Shown: positions 588 to 64,000, counted from the stretch's first letter. The stretch: 64,000 nt of DNA from an uncultured Methanosarcinales archaeon (GCA_964344285.1 CAYFMM010000002.1:72-64071), one strand, 5' to 3'. The notes: generated from the sequence alone by a model not told the origin. A program made the numbers and translations.

Positions 588-1655
588 CTAAACCAACTCG
601 ATTCCTAGCTCCTGACTTAAGGATTGGGCACGTTGCTCGGTTTTCTTTTGATCCATTTTGCCCAGGATCCAAGGAGAGTTAACACCTGTAATGATTGTCA
701 TTACAGTCATTTTTCCTTTCATTTCATCCATAACACGAGCTCCCCAGATTACATTTGCATCATCATCTAAGGATTCTGTTACAAGTTCACCGATTCTAGA
801 TACTTCATCTAGTGTCATGTCTGGTCCACCAGTAATGTGGATTAGTGCTCCGGTTGCTCCTTCGTAGTTGATATCAAGTAAAGGATTGGATAATGCTCCT
901 TTTACTGCTTCATCTACTCTGTTGTTTGTATCTGAGCTTCCTACACCGATAGCTGCAACACCACCGTTGGACATGATTGCTTTTACGTCAGCATAATCTA
1001 AGTTTACTAAGGAAGGAACTGCAATTGTTTCTACAATACCTTTGATCATTGTTGCAATTAGTTCGTTTGCAACAGCAAATGCTTGCTGAATAGGTAAGTT
1101 TCCTGCAATTTGAACTAGTCTGTTGTTATCAATTACAATTACTGTGTCAGTTACTTGTCTTAGTTGTTGTAAACCAAATTCTGCTTTATCGCATCTTGCT
1201 CTTTCAATGTTAAACGGCATGGTAACTGTTCCGATTACAATTGCACCTGTATCTTTTGCAACTTGTGCTACTACTGGAGCTGCACCTGTTCCGGTTCCTC
1301 CACCCATACCAGCACATACAAATACCATGTCTGATGTTTTAAGAGCTTCTTTAATTTGCATTAATGATTCTTGTGCAGCTTCTGCTCCTCTTGATGGGAA
1401 TCCTCCACATCCTAGACCTCTTGTACATTCTTTTCCAATTAAGAACTTACGATCTGCACCTGTAATATTCAAGTGTTGATGATCTGTGTTTGTAGCAATG
1501 ATTTCTGCGCCTTTAACGCCTTTTTTGTATAACCATCCTACCATATTGTTACCAGCGCCACCTACACCAATAACCTTAATGTTTGCCTGACTCATGTTTT
1601 CGAAGTCATTTTCAGCCGGCATGCTTTCCAATGCTTTTTCCACAACAAATTCCAT
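588..1655 (-). CDS. ftsZ: Cell division GTPase FtsZ
   Basis: Tubulin/FtsZ signature GGGTGTG (in '...CAGMGGGTGTGAAPVVAQVAKDTGAIVIGTVTMPF') and N-terminal GVGGAGNN nucleotide-binding motif. 355 aa, typical length. Confidence 0.9.
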   Translation of the reverse strand: MEFVVEKALESMPAENDFENMSQANIKVIGVGGAGNNMVGWLYKKGVKGAEIIATNTDHQHLNITGADRKFLIGKECTRGLGCGGFPSRGAEAAQESLMQIKEALKTSDMVFVCAGMGGGTGTGAAPVVAQVAKDTGAIVIGTVTMPFNIERARCDKAEFGLQQLRQVTDTVIVIDNNRLVQIAGNLPIQQAFAVANELIATMIKGIVETIAVPSLVNLDYADVKAIMSNGGVAAIGVGSSDTNNRVDEAVKGALSNPLLDINYEGATGALIHITGGPDMTLDEVSRIGELVTESLDDDANVIWGARVMDEMKGKMTVMTIITGVNSPWILGKMDQKKTEQRAQSLSQELGIELV

Positions 1656-14105: not shown

Positions 14106-15086
14106 TTAAATTAATCCTGCTGCAGTCATGAAGTTTCTTAGAGATGCAACTACTTGTGAAATTATTTGCCCCACAGATAAGGAGTTATCATTAAGTGTGT
14201 TTGAAATTTCTTGTACTGTTGGAGTACATAAACCCCGTACTTCATCTCTTGCTCCGTCACAAGTACAACCTGAAGCCGCTACGTCTTGGTTATCTGTACA
14301 AGATGTTGCTGGAGGTGGAGTTGTTGCAACTGCACACGTCCCACTTACACATGAACCTGAAGCACACATAGAACTATCATAACAAAAGGAACCATCAGCC
14401 AAGTTAGAACATACACCAATTGTTGCACCGTGACATTGTGTGTCTTGACAATCTATTCTTCCATCCCCATCATTATCATTCCTATCTTGACATAATGCAG
14501 GAGTGTTTTCTGTTGTTGGAGTTGGAGCCGTACAAGCCGATGTATCTATTTGACAGGTTACAGGGTCACAAGATAAACTTCCTCTTGAGCCTGCTCCAAC
14601 TTCAGAAGCGCAAGTTGCTGTCCCAAAGTTTGTGCCGTCACATTCTTCTCCTGCATCAATGTTACCATCCCCACAAGTAGGAGCTGCAACAACACTTAAA
14701 GTAGAAGCTCCAGGTAAAGCAGTTGTTGATCCTTGAAAAATAACTCCACCTGTAAAAACACCTGATGTTGCAGTTGTGGGAGCAGTTACGACATAAGAAT
14801 GAACCGGTGAAGCTGGAATTGAAGTTAATGCCAACTTAAGATTTTGTCCGTTTTGTCTAAAAGAACCTACATCCGAGATTATCCAACCTGCAGGAACTTT
14901 TTCATCAATAGCATAGAAGAGCTCTCCTGCTGCAGGAGTTGCAGTAATTGTAACTGTCACAGTATTCCCTTGAGTCGCTGGGTCTGGACTAAAGGAACGT
15001 GTTGCAGTCCCTGCAAAAGCCATGGGCAGAAGTAGTGCAATTAACGCCACTACGATTATTAATTTCATATTTGTATTTTTCATCAT
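14106..15086 (-). CDS. Secreted protein: beta-sandwich N-domain + Myxococcus-type Cys-rich repeat + 'CQDRNDNDGDGRIDCQD' Asp/Cys-rich module
   Basis: The ORF track runs 14106..15116. I place the likely start at the internal Met giving 'MMKNTNMKLIIVVALIALLLPMAFAG', which removes the overlap with the upstream gene. Repeat 'TCGDGNIDAGEECDGTNFGTATCASEVGAGSRGSLSCDPVTCQIDTSAC'. Confidence 0.55.
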   Translation of the reverse strand: MMKNTNMKLIIVVALIALLLPMAFAGTATRSFSPDPATQGNTVTVTITATPAAGELFYAIDEKVPAGWIISDVGSFRQNGQNLKLALTSIPASPVHSYVVTAPTTATSGVFTGGVIFQGSTTALPGASTLSVVAAPTCGDGNIDAGEECDGTNFGTATCASEVGAGSRGSLSCDPVTCQIDTSACTAPTPTTENTPALCQDRNDNDGDGRIDCQDTQCHGATIGVCSNLADGSFCYDSSMCASGSCVSGTCAVATTPPPATSCTDNQDVAASGCTCDGARDEVRGLCTPTVQEISNTLNDNSLSVGQIISQVVASLRNFMTAAGLI

Positions 15087-15087
15087 C

Positions 15088-15900
15088 TTAGCACCCCGAG
15101 ATATACCAATTATCAATTACTTGGAATAAATCTGTTATAGTTGCAGTACCCGCGTACCAACTGTCGATATAGGAAAATAATTCTGGAACATCAATACAAC
15201 CACTGTTATCTGTATCGCCTAAAAGAGTAGAAACTGTTGTACAACCAGTAGTATCGATTTGACAAGTAGTGGGATTACAAGAGAGAGTTCCTCCAGTAAA
15301 AGAGCCAATATCATCGCATGCAAAACCCTGTAGGTCTGAGCTATCACATTCTTCATTACCCTCTATAATACCGTTCCCACAATTAGGAACAATTATGTTT
15401 ACCGTTCTTTGAGTAGGATCTTGAGAAGCACTAGTGGCGTAAGAACTTCTAAGGGAACCAGAAGCTACCATCCTATTAAAAAAGAATTCTACTGATCTTG
15501 GACTTGTCCCTGCTTGGTAAGTTGCAGTTGCAAATAACAAGTTATTACCAACTACAAAGTTAGTTCCTGAGAGAAGTTCAGGAAGAGGTCTCGTCTCAGC
15601 ATAACGCCATCTAAAATTTTGAGAGACATCATTAATAGTAGATGTAGTTGAAAGTAAATTCTCTCCTTGTTGAGAAATTCTCGTAACTCCACTACTAGAG
15701 TAGTATTCAAATTCTGCATAAGTAAGAGCCTCGTCAGTTGGAACATCCAAATAAACTTGCACATCAAAGGTCTCCCCTACGTAAACAGTTTGAGGGACTA
15801 CAACACGGAAGTTTACAGTTGCTTGAACACTTGTAACAACTAATGAAAATATAATTAATAAGAGTAAGAAAAATTTGAATTTATTGGTTTTTATTTTCAT
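15088..15900 (-). CDS. Secreted cohesin-like N-domain + Cys-rich repeat + C-terminal Ca-loop dockerin-like module
   Basis: Signal 'FKFFLLLLIIFSLVVTSVQA'. N-domain 'TVNFRVVVPQTVYVGETFDVQVYLDVPTDEALTYAEFEY' follows the cohesin strand pattern. Repeat 'CGNGIIEGNEECDSSDLQGFACDDIGSFTGGTLSCNPTTCQIDTTGC'. C-terminus 'GDTDNSGCIDVPELFSYIDSWYAGTATITDLFQVIDNWYISGC' has an EF-hand/dockerin-like DxDxSGxxDxxE loop. Confidence 0.6.
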   Translation of the reverse strand: MKIKTNKFKFFLLLLIIFSLVVTSVQATVNFRVVVPQTVYVGETFDVQVYLDVPTDEALTYAEFEYYSSSGVTRISQQGENLLSTTSTINDVSQNFRWRYAETRPLPELLSGTNFVVGNNLLFATATYQAGTSPRSVEFFFNRMVASGSLRSSYATSASQDPTQRTVNIIVPNCGNGIIEGNEECDSSDLQGFACDDIGSFTGGTLSCNPTTCQIDTTGCTTVSTLLGDTDNSGCIDVPELFSYIDSWYAGTATITDLFQVIDNWYISGC

Positions 15901-24977: not shown

Positions 24978-25120
24978 ACTCTATCAGTAGAAAATGAAAT
25001 TTTTTGTGTATATAAAGGTTGCTATAAAGGACAGTTAAGATACGTAAGCACAAGACACTTGATTGAACACTAGGAAAGAAAGAAAAGAAAAAAAAAGGAT
25101 AGAAGAAAAGGATTAAAAAG

Positions 25121-45943: not shown

Positions 45944-47239
45944 TTATTCTATCAATTCATTAAACTTTTCAAAATCATCTAACAATTCTTTCCGTAAGTC
46001 ATTTCGTAGCCATTTAGGATATTTCTGCAGTTTAGAATCAACAACCTTGGCGAATAATTCTTTTAGTGCAGCTTTAAGAGATTCCTTAAATAAATCAGGC
46101 TTCAAAAACTTCTTAATTTCTGCCAATTCAACTTCTCTTTGTTCATCTCTTAATTTTATTTCGTTTTCTAAAACAGTAATCCGTTTTTCTAATTTAGTAC
46201 GAGCTTCTGTTTCAAGAAGGATATCTTGCTCAACAATAGTATCTTTCATTCCCAATAGCTTGGTGTAATAATGCACTATGCTGTTTTCAACCCATCCAAA
46301 ACGGAATTTGAAAGCAGATTCAGATTTATAGCGGGGAAGCCAGTAACAAGCCGAGGAATGCCGAAAATCGTACAAACGAATTTCTCTGATAAATTTTCCT
46401 CCCTTCGTTTTAAAATCCCCGAGAACGCGCACAAAAAGCCGCTGAATGTATCTTTTGGCAACAGTAGGATCAATATTAAAGAGATAGGATTCGTTACCTA
46501 GATTCATTACTTCTAGGTATTCTTTAATGAGATTAGAACAAAGTAATAATTTAGGTCTCCTCCCAAAAGTTTTGGCAACCTCTTCTCTGATATTAACTTC
46601 ATACACATTTTCATCTTCACGCCACGTTAAATCTTCAACTTTGATATTCATTAATTCCGTAGGTGCACGGATGCCTGAGTCAAACATAAACCACATCATT
46701 ACTTTGTAATCAAATTTAGCCGATGCTACAACTCGCTTAAATTCTTCAATTGTAAAGTAAGCAAACTTATTTTCCTCCACTGGACCCATATCAATATAAG
46801 TTGTGATATCCTTAATAGAATTGCCATTTTCATCTTCTCTCTTTTGATACCAATGCCAAAATGCTTTGAAGACGTTAGCATAGTCCCTTACAGAAGTATA
46901 ACGATTTCCTTTATTTGTGAGAATGTATCCTTTCCTCATGTACTCGTTAAAGAACTTGCTCACATCCTTGCGAGTTAACTCACCAAGATTTTTTTTGAAT
47001 GATTGCTCCATTTGCAGCGCAATCCAGCGCATCCGCTGACGAAGATTATTGAGCCGTGCGTAGCTTAGACCCCCTGGTCTGCCCACATGGTAACCACTTT
47101 CCATGTCAGAGATATATTCTAAAATGAGCTCCTGGTTCTCAGAAGAGACATCTTTGACGATAGGATTTTTCTTCCAGTTAAGATATTTCTTTTCATGACC
47201 CCAAACATCACGTTTCATGTCGTTACTTGTGCATAGCAA
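45944..47239 (-). mobile_element. int: Tyrosine recombinase / phage-type integrase
   Basis: Box I 'FDSGIRAPTEL' (catalytic Arg), box II 'LYDFRHSSACYWL' (HxxR) and a downstream Tyr in 'SIVHYY'. Its 5' end faces the 3' end of tRNA-Ser ~100 nt away. Confidence 0.75.
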
Positions 47240-47343: not shown

Positions 47344-47466
47344 CGCCACGGGCCGGATTTGAACCGACGATCCCAGATGGGACTGGATGTTTGGTATACA
47401 CGGAGATCTGATCGACAGATACAGCCGATAGCAATCCAGCGCAATACCAGACTATGCGACCGTGGC
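47344..47466 (-). tRNA. tRNA-Ser (anticodon GCU) with ~40-nt intron in the anticodon loop and a long variable arm
   Basis: Folded by hand on the minus strand. Acceptor GCCACGG/CCGTGGC, U8. D-loop carries GG. Anticodon stem CTGGA/TCCAG, loop TTGCTA|intron|A with U33 and A37. Variable arm 'TCCCATCTGGGATC' (class II). T-arm GTCGG-TTCAAAT-CCGGC. Ends may be off by +/-3 nt. Confidence 0.6.
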
Positions 47467-47594: not shown

Positions 47595-48008
47595 TTACTC
47601 TTGAACCATTGAAGAATTTCTATGAATCCTTGCAAAGTACGGGGCGGCAACAACGTAATCTTCACCAAAACCTGCAATATCGCCTTCAATAGCATCGCAT
47701 GTTTTTCTGAGCTTAGAAATTGCTCTTTTTAATTCGACTAAGTCTTTATCTTTTAATGGCCTAATATTGATCAATGCAATAGTGGAGCCTTCACGTAATG
47801 TGTCAAGAACTTCTTTGATATCTTCAAAGTCTTCCATTACAAATGGTTTGATTAAAACTTTGGATTTTGCTTCCTCTCTGTTGGGAGTTGAAGCGCCTAA
47901 AACCTCTACATATTCCTCTCCAGCTTGAGGTTCCATTTCATAGTCCTCTTCCTCGACAGGTTTTGCAAATTTATCTCGTAATTGTAAAAAAAAATCTTTC
48001 ATTTTCAC
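47595..48008 (-). CDS. sepF: Cell division protein SepF (FtsZ-binding, DUF552 family)
   Basis: C-terminal domain 'VLIKPFVMEDFEDIKEVLDTLREGSTIALINIRPLKDKDLVELKRAISKLRKTCDAIEGDIAGFGEDYVVAAP' follows the SepF pattern. Acidic N-terminal region. Confidence 0.7.
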   Translation of the reverse strand: MKMKDFFLQLRDKFAKPVEEEDYEMEPQAGEEYVEVLGASTPNREEAKSKVLIKPFVMEDFEDIKEVLDTLREGSTIALINIRPLKDKDLVELKRAISKLRKTCDAIEGDIAGFGEDYVVAAPYFARIHRNSSMVQE

Positions 48009-48139
48009 ACCCTCTCCATCATTTAATTATGATAGAAAAATAAGAGGACACCTCATATATAAATGTTTTTATTATCCCATATGAAGACTCAAAACTCTAT
48101 ATCGTCACATGAATTACTGAAGGGACAAAAAGAGAAAAG

Positions 48140-48181: not shown

Positions 48182-49765
48182 TTACGCCTGTAAGCGAAAT
48201 ACATTAGAATATGCTTTTTTCTTGCGTTTTTTTTCTTTAAATTCAACGACTGCACGAGGGAGTTGGAATGTCCCAAGAATGTTTAATTTAGCTCGAATCT
48301 TGTAAGTTATTAGACGATGCTCGTGGGCATCTAACTCAGCCAGAGACCAAACAACTTTTGTGCCTGTTTTTGCATGGCGAATTTCATGAGGTTTTAGAGT
48401 TCCAAGTTCTAAACTTTTTTGCACATTTGCAATTGCTGGAACTAAGTCTGTGATGGAAGCATGAACTAAAGGTTTTTTAGACCTGTTAAGAACTTCTAAC
48501 GTGACCTTAATTTCAGATAGTGAGCCTTCATCATCGCTACGAGTAGTAATGGCTGTTTTTTTAATCGCAACAGGAGAACGCACAGAATAGTAAAAGATGA
48601 AGAACACCGTAATCAAGATAAGTAAGTAAAGAGGCAAACGATAATTTGTAGTGTAGGAGACATCTACAGACTCACCAGGAGCAAGTTCAAGGCCCCATAC
48701 CAAATAAGATTGGCCTTCTTCACGCACCACGTTGTCTGCCCCCCTAGAAAGGATTGCTTGCCAAAAAGGCACAGGATGCTTAACTTCCTGAGCATTTAAT
48801 ACATTGCCACCGTTTTTGATTGTAAGCAAAGTTGATTTTTTTAAAAGATTCATTTTGGAGTTTGCAGCCACATCAAAGACAGGAAGTACAGTTAGAATTT
48901 CAATTTTTTGCTCTTGAATTTTTGCCACTTCTCCTTTGTGTTCAAAGACAAAGAAGATAAGGTAATCTTTTGGTTGTTGATATTTATTTGGTGTGATAGA
49001 AAATTCGACTGACTTTTTTTGTAATGGAGGTAAGTCTATAGTCACTTCTTTTTGAAATTCAGGCATATCACTTTGTAATTTTACAACTAACCCCGATAAA
49101 TCAAGAGGATTTCTGTTTTCTAAAAACAACTTGATAGAAAGAGGTTTATTGGGATCAATTTTTTCATCCATGTCAACATCCACCTTGATTGCTGGAAGGT
49201 AGTCTAGTTGTTTTTCTGGACTAAGAAATACCTTCATAGAATCAGTATACCTATCACCAGAATCACTTTCTACAGAAAACGCAAGGTTGTAAATGCCCGC
49301 AGGAAAATTCGTAGTTGGTGTTGAGACAAGGCGAACGGTTCTAGACTGCCCCGCTGCAATTTTAAAAGTTCGGTCAGTAATTGGATTTGGATCTATATTC
49401 CACCCTTGGACAAAAGAGTAAACAACATAGCTTTGAGCTAGAGTGTCTTGATTACTAACAACAATGTCAAACTCAGCAGACTCCAAAGGAGAGATTAAGT
49501 CATTAACTGGCTTTACAGAAACTGTTGACTGTGCTAACACAAATGTTGAGAATGAAAATAATGCTAAGAGCAAGACAATGACAAAAGCTAGTAATTTATT
49601 ATATTTCAACCCACTCACCTCAAAGAAAAAACAAATTTTGCTAGTATTTAAAGTCTTCGTTTCCAGAGACAATATTGTCGAGGAGAAGAGAAAAGAATAC
49701 CGAGGAATACAAACCAAGTGGGCATCCGATAGATTTAAATACTTTAATTTTTTAGTTGAACTCAT
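48182..49765 (-). CDS. Membrane protein with large extracellular beta-sandwich (CARDB/DUF11-like) region, one TM and ~130-aa C-terminal domain
   Basis: Hydrophobic signal 'LLAFVIVLLLALFSFSTFVLAQS' (true start probably downstream of the annotated Met). TM 'LYLLILITVFFIFYYSV'. No enzymatic motifs. Confidence 0.45.
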   Translation of the reverse strand: MSSTKKLKYLNLSDAHLVCIPRYSFLFSSTILSLETKTLNTSKICFFFEVSGLKYNKLLAFVIVLLLALFSFSTFVLAQSTVSVKPVNDLISPLESAEFDIVVSNQDTLAQSYVVYSFVQGWNIDPNPITDRTFKIAAGQSRTVRLVSTPTTNFPAGIYNLAFSVESDSGDRYTDSMKVFLSPEKQLDYLPAIKVDVDMDEKIDPNKPLSIKLFLENRNPLDLSGLVVKLQSDMPEFQKEVTIDLPPLQKKSVEFSITPNKYQQPKDYLIFFVFEHKGEVAKIQEQKIEILTVLPVFDVAANSKMNLLKKSTLLTIKNGGNVLNAQEVKHPVPFWQAILSRGADNVVREEGQSYLVWGLELAPGESVDVSYTTNYRLPLYLLILITVFFIFYYSVRSPVAIKKTAITTRSDDEGSLSEIKVTLEVLNRSKKPLVHASITDLVPAIANVQKSLELGTLKPHEIRHAKTGTKVVWSLAELDAHEHRLITYKIRAKLNILGTFQLPRAVVEFKEKKRKKKAYSNVFRLQA

Positions 49766-49794: not shown

Positions 49795-50364
49795 ATGGCA
49801 GATAGTGTGTTTCGAGGTACGATAGAATTCTTAGGGGAAGTTGGATTATATGACATTGTTCTTCCTTTCTTGTTAGTGTTTACAATTATGTTTGCTATCT
49901 TGGAAAAAACAAAAATCCTAGGGATTGAGAAAGTAAACGATAAAGAATATGCAAAGAAGAATTTGAATGCAATCGTTGCGTTTTCAACTGCTTTTTTAGT
50001 TATTGCTTCTACACGGCTTGTTGCAATAATTAATGATGTTATTGCAAACATCGTGCTACTATTGATTTTAGCAATCAGTTTTCTGCTATTAGTAGGAGCA
50101 TTTATGGGCGATCATGAGTTCAGTTTAAAAGACCACCCTGGATGGGTTACTTTTTTTATGGTTGCTATGTTAGTGGGAATTGTCTTAATTTTCCTCAATG
50201 CATTAGGATGGTTAGAATATGTCACTAACCTGTTTACATACTGGAGAGGCGAATGGGCTTCAACAATTATTTTTATTGCAATCATTGTTGGATTCATGGC
50301 CTTAGTGGTTTTCGGAGGAGGAAACTCAGGGAGCTCAAGTTCAAAAGAGAAGAAAAAAGAATGA
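49795..50364 (+). CDS. Polytopic (approx. 4-TM) membrane protein, paralog 1 of a tandem triplet
   Basis: Shares the N-terminal motif 'G.yD..lPFLLVFtimFAILeKtkiLG' and the overall hydropathy with the next two ORFs. Confidence 0.55.
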   Translation: MADSVFRGTIEFLGEVGLYDIVLPFLLVFTIMFAILEKTKILGIEKVNDKEYAKKNLNAIVAFSTAFLVIASTRLVAIINDVIANIVLLLILAISFLLLVGAFMGDHEFSLKDHPGWVTFFMVAMLVGIVLIFLNALGWLEYVTNLFTYWRGEWASTIIFIAIIVGFMALVVFGGGNSGSSSSKEKKKE

Positions 50365-50374
50365 GGGTATAATA

Positions 50375-50947
50375 ATGGCTACATTTGAAAATATTGTGTT
50401 TTTGTTTCAAAACTATGGAGTTTTGGATTTTTTAATTCCTTTTCTGCTCGTATTTGCAGTAACATTTGCAATCCTACAAAAGAGCAAGATCTTAGGGGAT
50501 AAAGCAAATATCCATTTTATTATTGCATTCACATTTGGGATGTTATTTGTAGTTCCGCACGTTTTAGGAAGATATCCTCCACAGTACGACCCAGTACTAG
50601 TGTTAAATTCAGCAATCCCAAGTATTTCGCTAGTGAGTATTGCAGCAGTTGCAGTGTTAGTTTTGTTAGGAGTTTTTGGAAAGAGATTTTCAAAAACAGC
50701 TGCACCAGTTATTGCTATTCTATCTATTCTCGCTGTAATTTTTATCTTTGGCTCTGCATTAGGATTATGGGTTGCACCAAATGACCTATTCTATTGGTGG
50801 ACTGCAGACGACTTTGAGTGGCTAGTAGTAATACTTGTCTTTGGAGTTTTAGTATTCTTAATTACAATGCCTCAAAGAAATAAAGAGAAGAAAGCTGGAG
50901 GAGCCCTTAAAGACTTTTTAGGAGGCTTAACTGAGGACACAAATTAA
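50375..50947 (+). CDS. Polytopic membrane protein, paralog 2 of tandem triplet
   Basis: 'GVLDFLIPFLLVFAVTFAILQKSKILG'. Same length (190 aa) and topology as its neighbours. Confidence 0.55.
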   Translation: MATFENIVFLFQNYGVLDFLIPFLLVFAVTFAILQKSKILGDKANIHFIIAFTFGMLFVVPHVLGRYPPQYDPVLVLNSAIPSISLVSIAAVAVLVLLGVFGKRFSKTAAPVIAILSILAVIFIFGSALGLWVAPNDLFYWWTADDFEWLVVILVFGVLVFLITMPQRNKEKKAGGALKDFLGGLTEDTN

Positions 50948-50948
50948 A

Positions 50949-51518
50949 ATGGCAACAGTATTAGATGCAGGATTACTTGGGACTTTTGGGATTGTCTTTC
51001 CATTTTTGTTTGTATTTGCACTGATATATGCAGTACTTCACAAGACTGGCCTTTTAGGCAAGAGCCCTGCGTTAAATGCAATCATTTCTGTTGCTACAGC
51101 ATTTTTAGTAGTTCTTTCTGATGCTGCTGTTGACGTGATTAACATCATCATTCCTTGGTTTGCAGCAATGATTGTGTTCTTTATTTTGATGTTATTGTTA
51201 TTTCAGATGTTTGGTGCTAAAGAAGCAGATATCTTTAGTGCTATGAAGAACAATGAAGCAATTTCTTGGGTGTTAATTGCAGTAGGGATTATTATCATTT
51301 TAACCGCGCTAGGAACTGTATTTGGGCAACGTTTTACAGAAGTTGCATTTGATGAGTCTAACGGCACATTAGATGCTAATTCTCTAGGAGGAGCAGTTGA
51401 TACTAGTGACTTTCAACAAAATATAATTAATACACTAGTACATCCAAAAGTCGTTGGCACAATGATTCTATTTATCATAGCAATATTTGCCATAGCGTTG
51501 TTAACAGGCAGCAAGTGA
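50949..51518 (+). CDS. Polytopic membrane protein, paralog 3 of tandem triplet
   Basis: 'GTFGIVFPFLFVFALIYAVLHKTGLLG'. 189 aa. Starts 1 nt after the stop of paralog 2. Confidence 0.55.
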   Translation: MATVLDAGLLGTFGIVFPFLFVFALIYAVLHKTGLLGKSPALNAIISVATAFLVVLSDAAVDVINIIIPWFAAMIVFFILMLLLFQMFGAKEADIFSAMKNNEAISWVLIAVGIIIILTALGTVFGQRFTEVAFDESNGTLDANSLGGAVDTSDFQQNIINTLVHPKVVGTMILFIIAIFAIALLTGSK

Positions 51519-51573
51519 GTGGCATAGAATGTTCTGAATTCAGGTTTGATTAGAAGAATAATAAGAAGTAAAG

Positions 51574-52197
51574 TTATTTTTTCTTAATTTTATCTGTAAG
51601 ACTGTTTAGTTCCTTAACGTTTTCAACAAACTGAGGAACAACATCTTTAAACACCTTTCCTACAGCGTTAAGTTCTGTGCCCACATCTTGCATTCGGTTG
51701 TCATAATCATCTAATTTTCCTAAAACTCCTTGGTGAAGTGTTGAGAAGTCTTCTTTTAGCTTTGCAACATCGTGAGCAAGTTTCATTTGTTTTTCTTCAA
51801 ATTTATTTTTCCAGTCAACAATTTTTTTAACTTCGGAGATTAGTTCATCCCATTTTTCATCAATTAAATTCTCCGTAATTTCTTCTATTCTGTCATAAAC
51901 ATTTGCAGGCGAGGATGAAGTCCCCACATTTGGAGCATAGTCAGAATATCCAGAACCTGTTGGAGGCTGCATATCTCCCATCGGCGGCTGCATTGTTTGG
52001 TTGGGAAAAGGATTTGGAGCACCTGGAGCACCATTAGGACTTGGAGGTACATCCAAAGGCTCTAAGCTCATTATTGCTTGATTAACAGCATCAGGAGAAA
52101 GACCTTTTTGAGTTAGTTCTTCCATGATAACTGAGTCTGTAAGGCCTTGTGCGCGTAAGTTTTGTACTTCTTCAACTGGACTATTCATTTGTATCAC
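51574..52197 (-). CDS. Hypothetical protein: small N-terminal helical domain, Pro/Gly-rich linker, C-terminal coiled coil
   Basis: 'PPSPNGAPGAPNPFPNQTMQPPMGDMQPPTGSG' linker, then heptad-rich 'EKWDELISEVKKIVDWKNKFEEKQMKLAHDVAKLKEDF...'. Confidence 0.4.
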   Translation of the reverse strand: MIQMNSPVEEVQNLRAQGLTDSVIMEELTQKGLSPDAVNQAIMSLEPLDVPPSPNGAPGAPNPFPNQTMQPPMGDMQPPTGSGYSDYAPNVGTSSSPANVYDRIEEITENLIDEKWDELISEVKKIVDWKNKFEEKQMKLAHDVAKLKEDFSTLHQGVLGKLDDYDNRMQDVGTELNAVGKVFKDVVPQFVENVKELNSLTDKIKKK

Positions 52198-52750
52198 CTT
52201 TGTGAGTTGTTTTTGTTCTTTGATTTTTTGTAGAAGATAATTTATGTGGACTTTTTTGTAACGCTAGTTGCTTTGTTATTTCTCTTTTGATATCCTTTTG
52301 TGTAACAAAGTTAAGAGGATTCCAAAGATCAACATATTTTTTTAAAGTCATTACTTCTTCTCTTCCTGCTGATTGTTTTAGTTCCTTGATAATTAAGTCT
52401 ACTTTTTGACGTAGTTTTTCATTTTCATGCTTTGTTTCCATGAGCTCTTCAGACAAAGATTTATTTTCTTGACGTAGTGCATTTTGTTTTGTGATAAAAT
52501 CATTTTTTAAAACACGCATTTCTCTTAGAAGATTATTTACTTTGCCTTCTAAACTTTTTACCCATACATACATCTGTTGATTTCCAAAATCAGATTGCTG
52601 TGGTTGCACAGGAGGTGCTTTGCTTTTAAGTAAAGACATAGATGAAATAGAGCGAAGTGCATATAATAAAGTTGTGTTAGTATTTGAGAGTAGTATTTTT
52701 GGCGGAGGAGAGTTTTTATTCTGAGAGATAGAAAAGGTAATAAAGCACAA
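52181..52750 (-). CDS. Hypothetical coiled-coil protein
   Basis: Continuous heptad pattern 'LLREMRVLKNDFITKQNALRQENKSLSEELMETKHENEKLRQKVDLIIKELK'. 17-nt overlap with the downstream coiled-coil gene. Confidence 0.4.
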   Translation of the reverse strand: MCFITFSISQNKNSPPPKILLSNTNTTLLYALRSISSMSLLKSKAPPVQPQQSDFGNQQMYVWVKSLEGKVNNLLREMRVLKNDFITKQNALRQENKSLSEELMETKHENEKLRQKVDLIIKELKQSAGREEVMTLKKYVDLWNPLNFVTQKDIKREITKQLALQKSPHKLSSTKNQRTKTTHKGDTNE

Positions 52751-52766
52751 GAGCCGTTCTAAGAAG

Positions 52767-55085
52767 ATGGTTACAGGAAGAACTACATTTTGTTTTGCAC
52801 ATGATATTTTTCATGAGGGAGAGAATAAAATTGTAAAGATTTCTATGGAAAAATGTAATTTTCCCCCATCCATCGAATATAGTGGTATTTGTATGAGTAA
52901 GGTTATTGAGGTTTTATTGCAAAATCAAGGGATAAATATTATTGTTTTAACACAATTACGAGAATATGAATATGATTTTTCGCAGGTTGCTTTGCTTGAT
53001 GAAATTGCACAGGCGTTTAAAAAGTTAAATCAAGATGAAAGACATATCCATTCGCAGCTTGTTACAAATCCTGAACATGAGAGGTATATTAGGGGAGTAT
53101 ATACTGAATTTCAACGGATTATTTCTAAAGAACTAAAAGAAGACCCATTTGCAGCATTTGTAGGTTTAAAGAGATTATATAGTCGTGAAAAAATCAGACA
53201 TGGGAATATTGTTGACGTGAGACATGGGCAAAGTCAAGGATTATTTTTGCAGATGTTAGATAGTGCAATTTCTGTACTAGAAGGCACTAAAATGATTCAA
53301 ATGATGATGCCACTTGCAAAGGATTATGATGTGGGAGATCGCCAAATTTATGGTAATGTTTTTCATCCAATTACAAGGCCTGATTTTATGTATACTAAGT
53401 TAGTAACTGATTTTCCAGAGGGGGAGTTAAAAGAGAGTTACACGTTTCATGCAGGTAGTGATGAATGTGAAGTTAATATTTTTGGATTTGATGATGACAT
53501 TAAAACACTGTATCATTTAACTCCACCTGAATTTCAATTTCCAGAAGAGATGTATGAACTACTTGATGATGCAAAAAGAATTATGTCTGAACATAAGCCA
53601 ACAAAAGAAGAGTTTGTTGATCCTCAGAGAATGCGAGAAGTATTTTTGAGTATTGGTAAAGATTTAATTGAAGATTTAGTAAAGCACAAAAAGATGCGTT
53701 TATCACAGCAAAAAGTTGACCAATTGGCACAAGCTTTATTGCGTTATACTGTTGGTTTTGGGTTAATTGAGTTATTATTATCTGATCCGAAAGTTCAGGA
53801 TGTAAATATTAATTCTCCAAACGGTGAGCTTCCAATTTTTATTGTACATCAAGATTATGGTGATTGTTATACGAATGTGTATCCAACTAGACTTGAGACT
53901 GAGAGTTGGGCAACAAAGTTACGTTTGATTTCTGGCAGACCGTTAGATGAGGCAAATCCAATTTTAGATACAGAGCTTAAAGTGCCTGGTTTTACGTCAA
54001 GAGTTTCTGCAATTACTGCTCCTTTGAGCCCGAATGGACTTGCCTTTTCATTTCGACGTCACAGAGATTTTCCATGGACATTCCCATTGTATTTGCAACC
54101 TAAAATTAGGTATATGGATGAGACTGCAGCAGGTCTGCTTAGTTTTTTAATTGCAAATAATGCTACAATGCTTGTTGCAGGAACTAGGTCTTCTGGAAAG
54201 AGTAGTCTTTTAGGAAGTTTCTTAGTTGAAATTTCTCGTCGTTCACGAATTTTAACAATCGAGGATACATTTGAATTGCCACAAGAATCTTTGCGTGCAT
54301 TAGGATATAATTTAGAATCATTAAAAGTTGCATCTGCACTTGCGACAAAGGAAGGTAGTGAAGTTGATCCATCGATTGGAATTAGATCTACATTGCGTTT
54401 GGGAGATAGTGCAATTTTTGTAGGAGAAGTTAGAAGTAAAGAAGCTGTTGCATTGTTTGAAGCAATGCGTGTTGGGGCTGCTGCAAATGTTGTTGCAGGA
54501 ACAATTCATGCTGACTCCCCCTATGGAGTATATGACAGGGTTGTAAATGACATTGGCGTTCCTAAAACGTCGTTTAAAGCAATTGATATTATTGTTGTAA
54601 CAAATCCGGTCATTTCTGGCCTTAAGAAGTTTAAGCGGATTTTACGTGTTACAGAAGTGCGTAAAGAGTGGGAAAATGATCCGTTGCAAGAACATGCGTT
54701 TGTTGATTTGATGGTGTATAATGCAAAGACCGATCAGTTAGAGATTACTGAGGATTTACGTAACGGAAATTCAGATATTTTAAAACGAATGGCTGGAAGA
54801 ATTAAAGAGTTTGCAGGCGATTGGGATGCGGTGTGGGACAATATTGCACTACGCGGGAAATGTAAACAAGCAATTGTTGATGAGTTTAGCAAGGTTGTTG
54901 AAAAAGAAGAATTGAAAGGCGAGTCTAAAGAGATTTTAGAAGCAAAATTTGTAATTAAAGCTAATGATATGTTTAATTTAATCTCTGATAGGGTTAAAGA
55001 GAAGAAAGGAAAGCTAGACTCTGACACTATTTTCTTTGAGTATAAAGAGTGGTTAAAAAAGGAAGTTAAGAAGATTGTGTTGTGA
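52767..55085 (+). CDS. Type II/IV secretion system-family ATPase (FlaI/PilB/VirB11-like), unusually long (772 aa) with large N-terminal extension
   Basis: Walker A 'AGTRSSGKSSLL' and Walker B 'RILTIEDTFEL'. The T2SE N-domain region 'VQDVNINSPNGELPIFIVHQDYG...LDTELKVPGFTSRVSAITAPLSPNGLAFSFRRH' is present. Confidence 0.8.
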   Translation: MVTGRTTFCFAHDIFHEGENKIVKISMEKCNFPPSIEYSGICMSKVIEVLLQNQGINIIVLTQLREYEYDFSQVALLDEIAQAFKKLNQDERHIHSQLVTNPEHERYIRGVYTEFQRIISKELKEDPFAAFVGLKRLYSREKIRHGNIVDVRHGQSQGLFLQMLDSAISVLEGTKMIQMMMPLAKDYDVGDRQIYGNVFHPITRPDFMYTKLVTDFPEGELKESYTFHAGSDECEVNIFGFDDDIKTLYHLTPPEFQFPEEMYELLDDAKRIMSEHKPTKEEFVDPQRMREVFLSIGKDLIEDLVKHKKMRLSQQKVDQLAQALLRYTVGFGLIELLLSDPKVQDVNINSPNGELPIFIVHQDYGDCYTNVYPTRLETESWATKLRLISGRPLDEANPILDTELKVPGFTSRVSAITAPLSPNGLAFSFRRHRDFPWTFPLYLQPKIRYMDETAAGLLSFLIANNATMLVAGTRSSGKSSLLGSFLVEISRRSRILTIEDTFELPQESLRALGYNLESLKVASALATKEGSEVDPSIGIRSTLRLGDSAIFVGEVRSKEAVALFEAMRVGAAANVVAGTIHADSPYGVYDRVVNDIGVPKTSFKAIDIIVVTNPVISGLKKFKRILRVTEVRKEWENDPLQEHAFVDLMVYNAKTDQLEITEDLRNGNSDILKRMAGRIKEFAGDWDAVWDNIALRGKCKQAIVDEFSKVVEKEELKGESKEILEAKFVIKANDMFNLISDRVKEKKGKLDSDTIFFEYKEWLKKEVKKIVL

Positions 55086-55096
55086 GAGTTGAGAGA

Positions 55097-56290
55097 TCAT
55101 AATAATTCATGTACGCCAGAAGGGCTACGTCGCTGTGAGAGTGGCACCGGAGTTTTTTTATCGTATACCCACCCTCCAATTGGAGCAGCAAAAAGGCGTT
55201 TAACAGTTAATTCTGATTTTATTGCTTGATACAACTTCTCTCCTAAGTCTCTTGTAACAGGATTAGGGTCTACTGCTTTTACAAACCCATCAACAAGATT
55301 CCCATAACCTTCCCTTTTCATGCTATCTACATAAGGTTCTATTCTAGAGTCAGGATCACGCTCATATTCAAGCAAATCACTAATACTTACACCTTCTAAC
55401 ATATTTCTACCCACACATGTTTCTCCTACCACTGTTGCATAAGCAAAGGAATCAACATGGGGCATTGTAAGTAGAGCTCCTCGCGTATATTCATTATTTT
55501 CTTTGGAACGTTGAGCATAAAATTCTGAAAACACGTTTGCCAATTTGTGGCCAATCATTTTTGGAGGAATACGTTCAGGTGCAAAATGTCCCAGAGTACC
55601 ATAAAACTCTCCCGAAGGAAATGGATCATAAATAATTCCAGACTCTTTTGCACTGGCAAGGCCAAAATCAAGAAGCACAACACCACTATCTTTGCGTAAA
55701 AGAACATTCAAGGGTTTAATATCTCTGTGAACAATTCCCTGTGCATGCGTCTCACCCATTACTTCATATAAGGAAGCGCCAGTTTGCAAACGTTTACGTC
55801 TTGAAAGAGAATCTTTTAAAATTAATTCTTGCAGATTTTCTCCTTGAGCATACTGCATCCACAGTGGTGTGAGAGGTTCTTCTGATTCAAATTTCCAGAG
55901 CTCTGCTACATTTCTTCCTAAAGGTTGTGCCCTTCTTAAAATTCCAGCTTCATGATGCGCAAATTGTGCACTTATTACCTTTTGGGGAATGGTGAATAAT
56001 TTTACTGCTAGAGTTAAATCTTCCTTCATTCTTTTCTTTCTCTTAACCCGAGGAACCAAATAGACTTCGCTAAATGCACCCTCGCCTATTTTTTGCGGTA
56101 CTTCATAATTGCCATTCCCTGCAATTCGTTGCAAAAAAGCATCACGGTGTTTTGTAATTTCTTCCGCGGAGTAAGCCTCTCTTGGATCCCCATCTATTTT
56201 GTATATATCTTCTATTGAAGCTGCAGCTAGGCCTGGTTCTGTTGACCCTTGAAGAGGCGCTCCCGTGAATAATTCTATCCAATCGACCAT
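55097..56290 (-). CDS. Eukaryotic-like (Hanks-type) Ser/Thr protein kinase
   Basis: 'HRDIKPLNVLL' catalytic loop, 'LDFGLASA' DFG motif, 'GTLGHFAPER' APE motif. Glycine-rich loop 'IGEGAFSEVY' and Lys in 'LAVKLF'. Confidence 0.8.
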   Translation of the reverse strand: MVDWIELFTGAPLQGSTEPGLAAASIEDIYKIDGDPREAYSAEEITKHRDAFLQRIAGNGNYEVPQKIGEGAFSEVYLVPRVKRKKRMKEDLTLAVKLFTIPQKVISAQFAHHEAGILRRAQPLGRNVAELWKFESEEPLTPLWMQYAQGENLQELILKDSLSRRKRLQTGASLYEVMGETHAQGIVHRDIKPLNVLLRKDSGVVLLDFGLASAKESGIIYDPFPSGEFYGTLGHFAPERIPPKMIGHKLANVFSEFYAQRSKENNEYTRGALLTMPHVDSFAYATVVGETCVGRNMLEGVSISDLLEYERDPDSRIEPYVDSMKREGYGNLVDGFVKAVDPNPVTRDLGEKLYQAIKSELTVKRLFAAPIGGWVYDKKTPVPLSQRRSPSGVHELL

Positions 56291-56362
56291 AAGAACAAGA
56301 AAAAACAGCTGTTTTCTTTATAAGAGTTTAGTTTAGAATAAAGGAGTAAGAGATTATGAGTT

Positions 56363-56752
56363 TTACTTATAACAGATATCACAACTAGAAAGACCAGTCT
56401 CTACATCCATATGGATTCTGCAAATTGCTTTTGATGTTTTAATGTAATCGCTTATTTTTTGGATTTGTTGATATGCTGTTTTTGTATCTTTAATGTTTGC
56501 TGCTGCTTTTGTGATAAACTCTTTTACGTCTTCTGGTAAAGAAATGTCTTTTGCGCGTTTTGCGTTACAATATTGTGAGACTGCCGATGGTGTTAGGTTT
56601 AAAAGAGTTGCAATTTCTTTTTGAGAGTGATTTTGTTTTTTAAGGGCTAGAACTAATTCTTTTCTAATGATTGGAAGAACATACCAGACTTCAATCTCTT
56701 GAGGATGTTTTACAGGTATTGTGTTGTCTTGTGGTTGGATTGTTGTAGGCAT
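56363..56752 (-). CDS. Archaeal-type HTH transcriptional regulator with C-terminal Cys/His cluster
   Basis: HTH 'SQKEIATLLNLTPSAVSQYCN'. C-terminal 'CRIHMDVETGLSSCDICYK' is a possible metal-binding knuckle. Architecture resembles archaeal COG2522-like regulators (inference). Confidence 0.5.
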   Translation of the reverse strand: MPTTIQPQDNTIPVKHPQEIEVWYVLPIIRKELVLALKKQNHSQKEIATLLNLTPSAVSQYCNAKRAKDISLPEDVKEFITKAAANIKDTKTAYQQIQKISDYIKTSKAICRIHMDVETGLSSCDICYK

Positions 56753-56803
56753 TGTTTTTTTTGTATATTTTTGTTTGTGATAAATGTTTTTGTTTTTATT
56801 AGC

Positions 56804-57649
56804 TTAATCAGCGCAGAGTAGAGATAGTTCTATCTGTAATGGCACTATCCTCCGTGCTTCTTTATTTTCATGAGCTGCTAATGCTACTGCATCTGCAAGG
56901 TTTTGACCGTATTGTAAACGAATTTCTTCATGAATTCGTAAACGATCTAATTTATTATATCTTATTCTCTTATGAACAATTTCTCGAAAATCTCCTTTAG
57001 TAACTAACTTTTCACGTAACAATCCTTCCCGAACAACTAGTGCCAAAGAAAAATAATCTGCTCGAAAATCTATAGGCTCACATCGTGCTTGTTCTGGCGC
57101 CATATATTCAACAGTCCCAAAAAGAGTTGTTGTTTGTTCTAAAGATGTATCTTGATTCTTTTTTGTTGCCAAGCCAAAATCAGATAAAATTGCAGGGCCA
57201 CGATTAAATGGAAGTAAGATATTATCCGGTTTCACATCTCCGTGAACGTATTGACAACCATGTACATATTCAAAAGCATCAGCAATATCAACACCCATAG
57301 CTGCAACTTCACAAACACCCATATTTTGTGTATATGCTGTTGCTAAAGGTGTACCACTAAAGTAAAAAAAGCAAACTTGGGCTCTTTCATCAGTATTGCC
57401 ATTTGTGTACCAATAAGGACGAGGTAGTCCTTTACACACCTCCCCTGTTTGTTCATGAATTGCATGAAGTATCTTTGCTTCATTAACAATAGGACCATTA
57501 TATCCTGGATCTCGTGCAACTTTCAAAATACCTGTAAATCCTTGATTTGGAAATGCCATAAACATCACATCACTCATCCCACCATATCCAAAAAGAGATA
57601 AGTGAAACTCTTCTGTTGCGTCTAATCTTTGATCCATTTTACACCCCAA
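56804..57649 (-). CDS. Hanks-type protein kinase, non-RD ('HGD') variant
   Basis: Catalytic loop 'YVHGDVKPDNILL', DFG 'LSDFGLATK' and APE-like 'GTVEYMAPEQ'. Compact at 281 aa. Confidence 0.65.
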   Translation of the reverse strand: MGCKMDQRLDATEEFHLSLFGYGGMSDVMFMAFPNQGFTGILKVARDPGYNGPIVNEAKILHAIHEQTGEVCKGLPRPYWYTNGNTDERAQVCFFYFSGTPLATAYTQNMGVCEVAAMGVDIADAFEYVHGCQYVHGDVKPDNILLPFNRGPAILSDFGLATKKNQDTSLEQTTTLFGTVEYMAPEQARCEPIDFRADYFSLALVVREGLLREKLVTKGDFREIVHKRIRYNKLDRLRIHEEIRLQYGQNLADAVALAAHENKEARRIVPLQIELSLLCAD

Positions 57650-62529: not shown

Positions 62530-64000
62530 GAGGCAATAGATGGAACGAGATGATTATCAAGATATTCTAGAGAAGTATAAGGCTAGAGTGAGGGACGAGT
62601 TTGGAGAGACGTCACAACAAGAGATTAAGGTAACGTCACAAGAGTATTCACAGTTTAAACAGGAATTATACCCCACACATTATTCTTTGTATGAGAGGGG
62701 ATGTAATTTTGCAGAGAATGCATTGAAGTTAAAGGTTGATCCTAAAAAAGCTGTTGAAAAACAAAAGAATTTAGATATTTGTCATTTGAATGTGAGCCCT
62801 TCAGGAGTTTTATCATTTGCAATTTTAATGGGATTATTTGTAATGGTCTTTGGATCATTAATTTTGTTTGCAGCACCGATTATTTTAGGATTAGAACCAA
62901 TGTTGTTTTTAGTGATGTTTGCACTCATTGGGGGTTTAGCGTTAATTCCAGCATTGCAAAAGTATCCTGATTTTTTAGCCAATAGATGGAGGATGAAGGC
63001 ATCAAACCAAATGGTGCAAAGCATTTTTTATCTTGTAACATATATGCGACATACATCAAACTTAGAGCGTGCAATTGAGTTTGCTGCTGAGCATTTAGAG
63101 GCTCCTTTATCACTGGATTTTAGAAAGATTTTATGGGACGTTGAAACACAAAAGTATAGCACAATTCGCGATAGTGCAAATGCATATTTAGAAACGTGGA
63201 AAGAATGGAATAAAGAATTTGTTGAAGCATTTCATTTAGTGGAGTCTTCTTTGTTTGAAGGTTCTGAAGATAGAAGATTAGCATTATTAGATAAGTCATT
63301 AAGTGTTATTTTGAATGGAACATATGAGAATATGTTACATTATGCACATAATCTAAAGGGACCAATGACAATGCTTCACATGTTAGGAATTATCTTGCCA
63401 ATTTTGGGTTTAGTTATTTTACCATTGGTTGTAAGTTTTTTGGGAAGTGAAACCAGCCCATTTACAATGGCTGTGTATATTTCGTTGTTGTATAATATTA
63501 CAATTCCTATTGCAGTGTATTATTTAGGGCAGACAATTCTTGCAAAAAGACCAGCAGGATATGGTGCAACTGATATTAGCGAGAAGAAAGGCTTTAGAAA
63601 GTTACGTAATGTAAATATTCCTTTAGGTAAGAAGCTTTCTATTAGTGTCAATCCTTTTTATTTTAGTATTATGGTATTTGCAGTAGCATTTTTGATGGGA
63701 ATTAGCCCATTAGTGTTGCATGCAGTTGGTGCAAGTGATTTTAGTTTTGATAGCAGAGGAAGTATTAAGATGTTGGATTATGTTTGTCCACCGCAGTTTG
63801 GTACTCCTTGTGATGCATCTGTACAAGTTGGTCCATACGGCATGGGTGCAGCAATGTTATCTTTAGTGTTGATTGCAGGACTAGGTGCAAGTATTGGACT
63901 ATTTTTTGCATTGCGATCAAAGAATGTGATTAAGGTTCGAGAGAGAACTAAATTATTAGAAGATGAATTTTCTTCTGCATTGTTTCAGTTAGGAAATAGA
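62530..64000 (+). CDS. FlaJ/TadC/PilC-like secretion-system membrane platform protein (partial, runs off window end)
   Basis: My own translation from ATG 62530 is open to 64000 (>490 aa), so it is absent from the ORF track. Cytoplasmic helical domains alternate with hydrophobic helix pairs ('VLSFAILMGLFVMVFGSLILFAAPIILGL', 'MLHMLGIILPILGLVILPLVVSFLG'). '...ERTKLLEDEFSSALFQLGNR' resembles the T2SSF-domain start. Confidence 0.55.

Follow-up and report, generated by a model that had tools for sequence, protein, structure and literature searches.

Analysis of a 64,000-nucleotide (nt) stretch of archaeal DNA (GCA_964344285.1 CAYFMM010000002.1:72-64071; referred to as the window) revealed three tandem genes encoding small paralogous membrane proteins, designated P1, P2 and P3, which the data support as part of a conserved seven-gene module specific to Woesearchaeota. 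Besides the triplet, the module comprises the genes of two coiled-coil proteins (cc207 and cc189), of an enlarged secretion ATPase and of a platform protein. Woesearchaeota are abundant, uncultured and host-dependent archaea whose cell biology is hardly known. In our preferred, still tentative, reading, a type IV filament-like machine peculiar to this lineage may contain the triplet as a heteromeric membrane subcomplex with the role of a scaffold or stator.

An earlier note on this DNA, made from the sequence alone, had described three paralogs of ~190 residues lying back to back, and both the open reading frames (ORFs) and BLASTP agreed with this description. The three genes follow each other head to tail with spacers of 10 nt (P1-P2) and 1 nt (P2-P3), and their products were related to each other with E-values of 4e-16 (P1/P2), 1e-13 (P1/P3) and 3e-6 (P2/P3). 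The signature D..(L/I)PFL(L/F)VF...FAIL.K...LG at the first transmembrane (TM) helix, which the note had ascribed to all three proteins, is matched exactly by P1 and P2, but is present in P3 only in a degenerate form (G..FPFLFVF...YAVL.K...LG). Residues invariant in the three paralogs and their orthologues include G17, P24, F25, L26, F29, A34, K38, L42 and G43, and the mean column identity in a 27-sequence alignment of P1 amounted to 67%. A protein identical to P1 is also recorded from a metagenome contig of 192 kb (ENA ERZ930065 / ERR2281800).

Hydropathy analysis detected five hydrophobic segments in each of P1, P2 and P3, so that the four TM segments originally counted per paralog are probably an undercount. 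P1 begins with an N-terminal amphipathic helix, carries a Lys-rich loop after TM1 and ends in a Lys-rich tail, whereas in P2 a Pro-rich insert sets hydrophobic segments 2 and 3 apart and P3 has an acidic loop of ~40 residues ahead of the last TM segment. Because the Pro-rich insert of P2 divides them, segments 2 and 3 were taken to be separate helices; in the AlphaFold2 (AF2) model of P1, which is of moderate confidence (predicted local distance difference test score, pLDDT, 67.8), they are drawn as a single long helix, and a structural-neighbour search with this model returned none. The external loops of the three proteins are acidic and Trp-rich, and all loops are shorter than ~20 residues except the acidic external loop of P3; basic stretches are the Lys-rich C-terminus and the loops that follow TM1 (Lys-rich) and TM3. 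This distribution of charges fits a predicted topology with five TM segments, the N-terminus outside and the C-terminus inside, and would place on the cytoplasmic side a basic juxtamembrane motif, (E/Q)K(T/S)K(I/L)LG, which follows TM1 and is common to P1, P2 and P3. The sole invariant acidic residue of P1, D20, sits at the outer boundary of TM1 and is lacking in P3.

Homologues of P1 were detectable in 1754 clusters at 90% identity, the best ones being 55-71% identical to the window protein, and a search with the family profile retrieved 2296 representatives at 50% identity, nearly all of them 180-200 residues long. Among GTDB species representatives, a relative is encoded by at least 526. 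The best 80 relatives were labelled Woesearchaeota, Nanoarchaeota or Nanoarchaeia, or bore placeholder names, and all named relatives came from metagenome-assembled genomes (MAGs) labelled Woesearchaeota or Nanoarchaeota. The family, found in genomes with these labels only, is confined to one lineage. Every annotation of a family member reads 'hypothetical protein', and the longer members are read-through fusions or chimeras rather than informative domain fusions. One contig of 5 kb with the triplet and cc207 (L076, DATILO010000080.1) was deposited in a 'Candidatus Binatia bacterium' MAG, and 'uncultured Methanosarcinales archaeon' is the label of many further loci; both labels likely reflect mis-binned contigs or placeholder taxonomy.

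Exactly three tandem copies, always in the order P1-P2-P3, were found in 68 of the 69 loci with enough sequence; the triplication is both old and strict. The sole exception (L059, 10001-10609) carries P1 alone with unrelated genes in place of P2 and P3, which could be due to rearrangement or misassembly. P1 is the best conserved of the three, with a median identity to the window protein across loci of 57%, as against 46% for P2 and 44% for P3.

No match above threshold was obtained in Pfam or NCBIfam, even when 45 members of the family were submitted singly, so that a transporter or membrane-enzyme family was rejected for P1-P3; a match to a known transporter family was one of the outcomes that the earlier note had regarded as damaging to its proposal. 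The best sub-threshold matches were to Acyl_transf_3 (22.9 bits, cut-off 31) and DUF2070 (19.9 bits, cut-off 30), recurring in 8/45 and 6/45 of the family members, respectively. A sequence search of the PDB with the triplet profile gave nothing specific, a scan of viral contigs did not find relatives of the triplet, and in a PADLOC scan of the module proteins no defence-system model matched the triplet, all matches being sub-threshold or compositional.

The surroundings of the triplet were compared over 82 related loci in two ways, namely by tblastn with the window proteins and by unbiased clustering of all ORFs, the denominator for each gene being the number of loci with enough flanking DNA. 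The commonest kept arrangement, fixed in order and orientation, was P1>P2>P3> <cc207 <cc189 ATPase> (platform>), with cc207 present in 56 of 64 loci (88%), cc189 in 52 of 62 (84%) and the ATPase in 43 of 54 (80%). The link between triplet and secretion ATPase, which had initially been proposed for the window, is supported by this conservation, and no wide occurrence of the family away from the ATPase was observed. The linkage holds over deep divergence, with P1 identity down to 46%, and in the divergent half of the loci the genes form a compact seven-gene cluster with gaps of 10-120 nt (for example in L061). Neither the coiled-coil genes nor the ATPase were present in six loci for which 10 kb downstream was available.

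Upstream of the triplet, SepF was encoded within 3 kb in 29 of 59 loci and a 527-residue Ig-like membrane protein (big527) in 33 of 68, all of them closer relatives. In the more divergent half, both genes are absent from the 10 kb upstream and translin-like and metallo-beta-lactamase-fold genes are found instead. As no gene other than those of the triplet, the coiled-coil proteins, the ATPase, SepF and big527 was common to more than 18 of 83 loci in the ORF clustering, the surroundings of the module are otherwise scrambled in gene order. SepF is a lineage-restricted neighbour that probably stands outside the module, and big527 is possibly an S-layer-like accessory protein that is linked to it in the closer relatives only.

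The ATPase had been assigned to the FlaI/VirB11 family, and this assignment was upheld by a Pfam T2SSE match of 55.3 bits (cut-off 24.9) and by an intact Walker A motif (GTRSSGKSS). In PDB searches it matched afGspE best (2oap, E 3.6e-29), followed by CpaF (1.4e-19) and FlaI (2.4e-14). The score of 123.6 bits against the NCBIfam FlaI model stayed below the equivalog cut-off of 550, and the protein also lay far under the cut-off of the TadA equivalog. Judged from these matches it is a bona fide T2SSE/FlaI-like enzyme, with a core at approximately residues 241-655 that is flanked by extensions at the N-terminus (~1-240) and at the C-terminus (~660-772). These extra ~240 and ~110 residues were without any match, and a PDB search with the N-terminal 278 residues likewise gave none. 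Two Ser/Thr protein kinase genes and a helix-turn-helix gene directly follow the ATPase gene in the window (55097-57649, minus strand), and in L001 an unrelated kinase (14603-15685) is located between the coiled-coil genes and the ATPase; such ATPase-adjacent kinases may be regulatory and are not orthologous across loci.

A FlaJ/TadC-like gene had been noted from position 62530 onwards; the gene, which starts at 62540, resembles platform proteins at the level of the fold, but its full-length product (P0271, 731 residues) gave no Pfam, NCBIfam T2SSF or PDB sequence match. In Foldseek searches with the AF2 model (pLDDT 68.6), its domains matched the cytoplasmic domains of OutF (5nbg), EpsF (2vmb, 2vma, 3c1q) and PilC (2whn) with probability 1.00, target-normalised TM-scores of 0.67-0.75 and a root-mean-square deviation of ~3 A, at E-values (0.03-0.8) that are not significant alone, and the model also matched PilC of the type IVa pilus machine model 3jc8. 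Since all well-superposed matches fall within a single family and the gene shares an operon with a T2SSE ATPase, we accepted the modelled product as a putative, very divergent platform protein. An hhalign comparison of its N-terminal and C-terminal halves, aimed at the internal repeat of PilC, gave no signal, the alignments being shallow (effective number of sequences, Neff, ~2).

In 17 of 41 loci a homologue of the platform gene lies directly downstream of the ATPase gene, on the same strand and with a gap of <400 nt, which argues for the 62540 product being the cognate partner of the ATPase; in 24 it lies within 3.3 kb. In the window, the platform gene is located ~7.4 kb from the ATPase gene with kinase and Suf genes in between, and in the window and its nearest relatives it has been relocated beside the Suf genes. 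Because the 731-residue protein encoded after the ATPase has GspF/PilC-type domains by Foldseek, the neighbourhood would encode a real ATPase-platform core.

Two coiled-coil proteins, one of them with a Pro-rich linker, are indeed encoded beside the triplet as the earlier note had stated, but both are read from the opposite strand, towards P3 and away from the ATPase gene. The cc189 gene overlaps the start of cc207, and the two are probably co-transcribed for this reason. cc207 consists of a UBA-like three-helix N-terminal domain, a Pro/Gly-rich linker and a conserved helical C-terminal domain of ~105 residues, with no TM segment; its library matches were confined to weak UBA-like and DUF7626 hits, and a PDB profile search assigned it to no family. 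In cc189, a conserved KYxDLWxPxNFVT motif comes after the coiled coil; its database matches were generic coiled-coil ones only, and a PDB profile search gave nothing specific. Both proteins lie outside any described family. In divergent loci (for example L065, L070, L074 and L078), many cc207/cc189 orthologues have at or near the N-terminus an (M)ALFG/LFGKK-like motif followed by a Pro/Lys-rich linker, which recalls the membrane-binding N-termini of ESCRT-III/PspA-type proteins. The LFGKK-like motif was dropped as too weak, since it occurred in 10/63 and 14/57 sequences (16-25%) versus ~9% of controls.

At the head of the triplet, a GAGG Shine-Dalgarno-like site precedes the ATG of P1 by 8 nt. 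Most related loci carry at the promoter position of P1 a near-consensus element, GAAACATTTATATA, corresponding to a transcription factor B recognition element (BRE) and a TATA box, and TTTATATA was found in 60 of 77 P1 upstream regions versus ~9% of control upstream regions. The promoter layout consists of GAAACATTTATATA (BRE and TATA), TCTTTTAAT ~10 nt further on and then an AAAGAGG ribosome-binding site; it is lineage-wide, occurring upstream of P1 in most loci (L001-L086) and upstream of SepF in the window (48056-48069, minus strand). A further near-consensus promoter match was located at 25009-25022, upstream of a gene encoding 1107 residues.

Table 1. Positions of the module genes, the P1 promoter element and the upstream neighbours in the window
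Feature	Position	Strand	Basis and remarks
P1, first and best conserved paralog	49795-50364	+	ORF, 189 aa
P2, second paralog	50375-50947	+	ORF, 190 aa
P3, third and most divergent paralog	50949-51518	+	ORF, 189 aa
cc207	51574-52188	-	ORF, 204 aa as called
cc189	52181-52639	-	ORF, 152 aa from conserved Met
FlaI/TadA/GspE-type hexameric secretion ATPase (predicted), enlarged	52767-55085	+	Pfam T2SSE, PDB matches; 772 aa
GspF/PilC/TadC-type platform (putative), divergent	62540-64000, runs off window	+	Fold match; 487 aa inside
TATA-like box TTTAAATA	49733-49740	+	~55 nt upstream of P1 start
big527 membrane protein, divergent from P1	48182-49765	-	ORF; Ig-like domains
SepF, FtsZ membrane anchor	47595-48008	-	Pfam SepF E 1.1e-9

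According to the reading that we tentatively favour, P1, P2 and P3 would be made from one operon and would assemble as a heteromer, most simply in a 1:1:1 ratio; the strict and ancient triplication is the pattern expected of non-redundant subunits. Within the machine of Woesearchaeota, the complex would serve as a lineage-specific accessory of a scaffold or stator-like kind; the enlarged FlaI/TadA-type ATPase and the very divergent PilC/TadC-type platform would make up the core, with the ATPase hexamer docked beneath the platform. The soluble proteins cc189 and cc207 would serve as cytoplasmic connectors and, together with the extra N- and C-terminal domains of the ATPase, might touch the (E/Q)K(T/S)K(I/L)LG motif of all three paralogs, the sole cytoplasmic feature that P1-P3 have in common and a plausible shared docking site. 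The triplet complex, with 15 TM segments in all, might anchor the motor in the membrane, or surround or extend the platform. We infer the function of the triplet from gene neighbourhood alone, and we also infer the physical association of its products, their stoichiometry, a scaffold or stator role and any cargo or product of the machine. Membrane and coiled-coil proteins restricted to particular lineages are known from archaeal type IV pilus loci (PMC4858521), and the extra domains of their ATPases have been proposed as interfaces or docking sites for subsystem-specific accessory proteins (bioRxiv 10.64898/2026.04.22.720090).

Several observations weigh against a role of the triplet as a part of this machine. 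Its proteins possess no cytoplasmic domain that would obviously be able to dock an ATPase, no invariant acidic residue is located within a TM segment, unlike in ion-driven stators, and the AF2 monomer is only moderately confident and lacks a structural neighbour. Triplet, coiled-coil pair and ATPase represent three separate transcription units of differing orientations, and a motif search comparing the P1 upstream region with the divergent region between cc189 and the ATPase found general BRE/TATA elements only. The strong P1 promoter suggests an output of the triplet well above that of the ATPase, which would be unusual for a low-copy machine part. Moreover, ~12-20% of the loci with enough sequence are without nearby coiled-coil genes or ATPase (as in L004 and L007), the platform gene is often found elsewhere, and as all loci come from one order-level lineage the synteny could be partly inherited rather than selected.

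It is possible, though we consider it the less probable explanation, that P1-P3 form an independent and abundant membrane complex, be it a channel, a transporter or a membrane-structural assembly, which functions without the ATPase. The neighbourhood would then reflect shared ancestry or a loose co-regulation of envelope genes in small-celled, lipid-scavenging archaea. An operon of its own with a near-consensus strong promoter in most loci, transcribed separately from the coiled-coil genes and the ATPase, would suit such a complex, and the promoter evidence fits it at least as well as it fits a machine part. The six loci lacking both coiled-coil genes and ATPase within 10 kb downstream, the nearly complete embedding of P1-P3 in the membrane with very short loops, and the recurrence of sub-threshold matches to the polytopic families Acyl_transf_3 and DUF2070 point in the same direction. 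However, no transporter or channel family was matched above threshold and no relative was found in the PDB, while linkage to the coiled-coil genes and the ATPase, at 80-88%, is far above that of any other neighbour in flanks that are otherwise scrambled, and the clusters are compact with a fixed orientation.

A bolder form of the favoured machine reading, which we regard as rather unlikely, is that the seven genes encode a pilin-free, Woesearchaeota-specific machine derived from type IV filaments, in which a heterotrimer with 15 TM segments would form an ATPase-powered membrane conduit or anchoring ring for a non-pilus task. In host-dependent DPANN cells this task could be contact with partner cells or uptake of material.

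The earlier note had also offered a relation to SepF, which is weaker, the gene being adjacent in 29 of 59 loci among closer relatives only. In such a scenario the triplet would join SepF and big527 in FtsZ-based division or septal envelope remodelling, and we hold this to be improbable because only half of the loci show the SepF adjacency. Roughly every second locus (29/59 and 33/68) keeps the block SepF(-), big527(-), P1-P3(+), SepF of the window shares the strong promoter consensus, and archaeal pilus loci sometimes co-localize with CetZ or SMC-type cytoskeletal genes (PMC4858521; bioRxiv 10.64898/2026.04.22.720090). Yet linkage to the coiled-coil genes and the ATPase persists in the divergent half, where SepF and big527 are missing from the 10 kb upstream, FtsZ of the window is encoded 46 kb away, and nothing in its sequences connects the triplet with division proteins.

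Least probable of all, and in our view very hard to sustain, is the suggestion that P1-P3 are unconventional pilin-like subunits or substrates which the ATPase/platform motor assembles or extracts. It would account for the fact that no canonical pilin is encoded near the motor and for the strong promoter, which is typical of filament subunits, and the N-terminus of P1 (FRG, then hydrophobic residues) fits a loose class III pattern in some orthologues. On the other hand, the Gly at position -1 of P1 is not conserved (G/S/A/E/N), P2 and P3 have no class III site, and five hydrophobic segments without a globular domain are present. By the positive-inside rule the N-terminus would also be outside, away from a prepilin peptidase, with TM1 oriented opposite to that of a pilin, and the extraction of a protein with five TM segments into a filament is without precedent. 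The absence of an obvious class III pilin nearby, as initially remarked, was reproduced: the pattern scan of the window yielded none, no conserved candidate was encoded within 10 kb in the 82 loci, and the class III signal-peptide scans of the window and all loci returned spurious ORFs only, apart from the loose match in some P1 orthologues. Peptidase_A24/FlaK was not detected among the proteins scanned in the Pfam/NCBIfam runs, which took in part of the window; Woesearchaeota MAGs have been reported with flaK (PMC11606122).

Two further identities were tried for P1-P3 and rejected. A PilC/GspF/TadC platform was dismissed as there was no T2SSF match at E<=1 and the loops, apart from the acidic external one of P3, are shorter than ~20 residues, and an hhalign comparison of the triplet family with the platform family gave an E-value of 0.054 and a probability of 1%, on shallow alignments (Neff ~2). 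An ion-driven stator of the MotA/ExbB/TolQ-MotB type was set aside, as there was no MotA_ExbB or MotB match and no acidic residue within the membrane is invariant; belonging to that family becomes less likely on these grounds, a scaffold-like role does not.

The window has a G+C content of ~36-38% and its genes are archaeal. big527 contains Ig-like (DUF11/CARDB-like) domains on either side of a TM segment, with a DUF11 match of E 1.9e-5 in the L014 orthologue, and probably starts ~50 codons later than called, as its orthologues comprise ~475 residues. Its order of domains, namely a signal or anchor, Ig-like domains, the TM segment and a beta-sandwich domain that is basic, DUF11-like and, by prediction, cytoplasmic, is an unusual architecture. 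FtsZ (Pfam Tubulin and FtsZ_C; 588-1655, minus strand) lies 46 kb from SepF, and the division genes are thus not clustered. A 123-nt tRNA gene at 47344-47466 (minus strand), found by Rfam (42.4 bits) and missed by ARAGORN, probably contains an intron and adjoins a 431-residue integrase-like ORF (45944-47239, minus strand); together they possibly mark an integration site between SepF and large surface-protein genes. The region 21654-45929 contains very large ORFs of 1107, 2482 and 1525 residues on the minus strand and of 428 and 1182 residues on the plus strand, the latter two with faint SBBP repeat matches, and these large ORFs probably encode giant proteins of the surface or adhesin-like kind that DPANN genomes typically carry.

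A triplet family of ~2300 clusters at 50% identity, accompanied by a pilus-type motor without nearby pilins, would be among the most conserved lineage-specific envelope systems of Woesearchaeota. If the triplet is a part of the motor, it would represent a new type of accessory membrane subunit for the superfamily of type IV filaments (TFF), and the module would offer a concrete target for studying how DPANN archaea attach to, or exchange material with, their partners. If it is independent, the triplet would still be a highly conserved and probably highly expressed membrane complex that merits definition as a family.

The closest known systems are the archaeal TFF/type IV pilus systems with lineage-specific accessories, for example the euryarchaeal 'system 2'/clade 2 loci as well as subclades 4C and 4F (Makarova et al. 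2016, PMC4858521; Sivabalasarma & Albers 2026, bioRxiv 10.64898/2026.04.22.720090). As in these systems, a single FlaI/TadA-type ATPase with extra N- and C-terminal regions is combined with a single large platform gene, membrane-inserted accessories, an Ig-like/S-layer-like protein and an occasional proximity to cytoskeletal genes, and subclade 4F also includes a cytoplasmic coiled-coil protein (arCOG07564). In contrast, the present module has no pilin in or near the cluster and no prepilin peptidase among the proteins scanned, its platform is too divergent for Pfam T2SSF, and the three paralogs with ~5 TM segments, the UBA-like cc207 and cc189 have no detectable homologue in the described systems. 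Loci without identifiable pilins have precedents, as Makarova et al. (2016) described 'nanoarchaeal' ATPases of subclade 4F lacking them, and in subclade 4D of Thermoproteales an ATPase is found with a protein of 4 or 5 TM segments (arCOG05557/arCOG13890) and no pilins, for which a non-pilus function was suggested (PMC4858521). The module resembles 4D in pairing a secretion ATPase with small polytopic proteins of no recognizable family in a locus free of pilins and secreted proteins; it differs in that the small TM protein of 4D is thought to be a degenerate platform, whereas here a separate 731-residue PilC-like platform, a fixed trio and two coiled-coil proteins are encoded, the comparison with arCOG05557/arCOG13890 being one of descriptions only.

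The archaellum offers a likeness in concept, as a FlaI/FlaJ-type core is surrounded there by coiled-coil or ring-forming accessories, with ArlX (FlaX) or ArlC/D/E as motor scaffolds, and by membrane-anchored stator parts, ArlF and ArlG. However, there is no sequence match, FlaH and archaellins are not encoded nearby, the ATPase does not approach the cut-off of the FlaI equivalog (123.6 versus 550 bits), and ArlF, ArlG and ArlX are single-pass proteins whereas five TM segments are predicted for P1-P3. Among solved hexamers, afGspE (2oap), CpaF and FlaI align with the window ATPase over the N2 and C-terminal ATPase domains, and differ from it by the absence of its ~240 additional N-terminal and ~110 additional C-terminal residues. 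The two surveys of archaeal TFF systems describe no Woesearchaeota-specific module (PMC4858521; bioRxiv 10.64898/2026.04.22.720090), and our literature search found no account of this family or module in Woesearchaeota or DPANN archaea. Set beside these systems, the conserved module is new and is built around an undescribed protein family.

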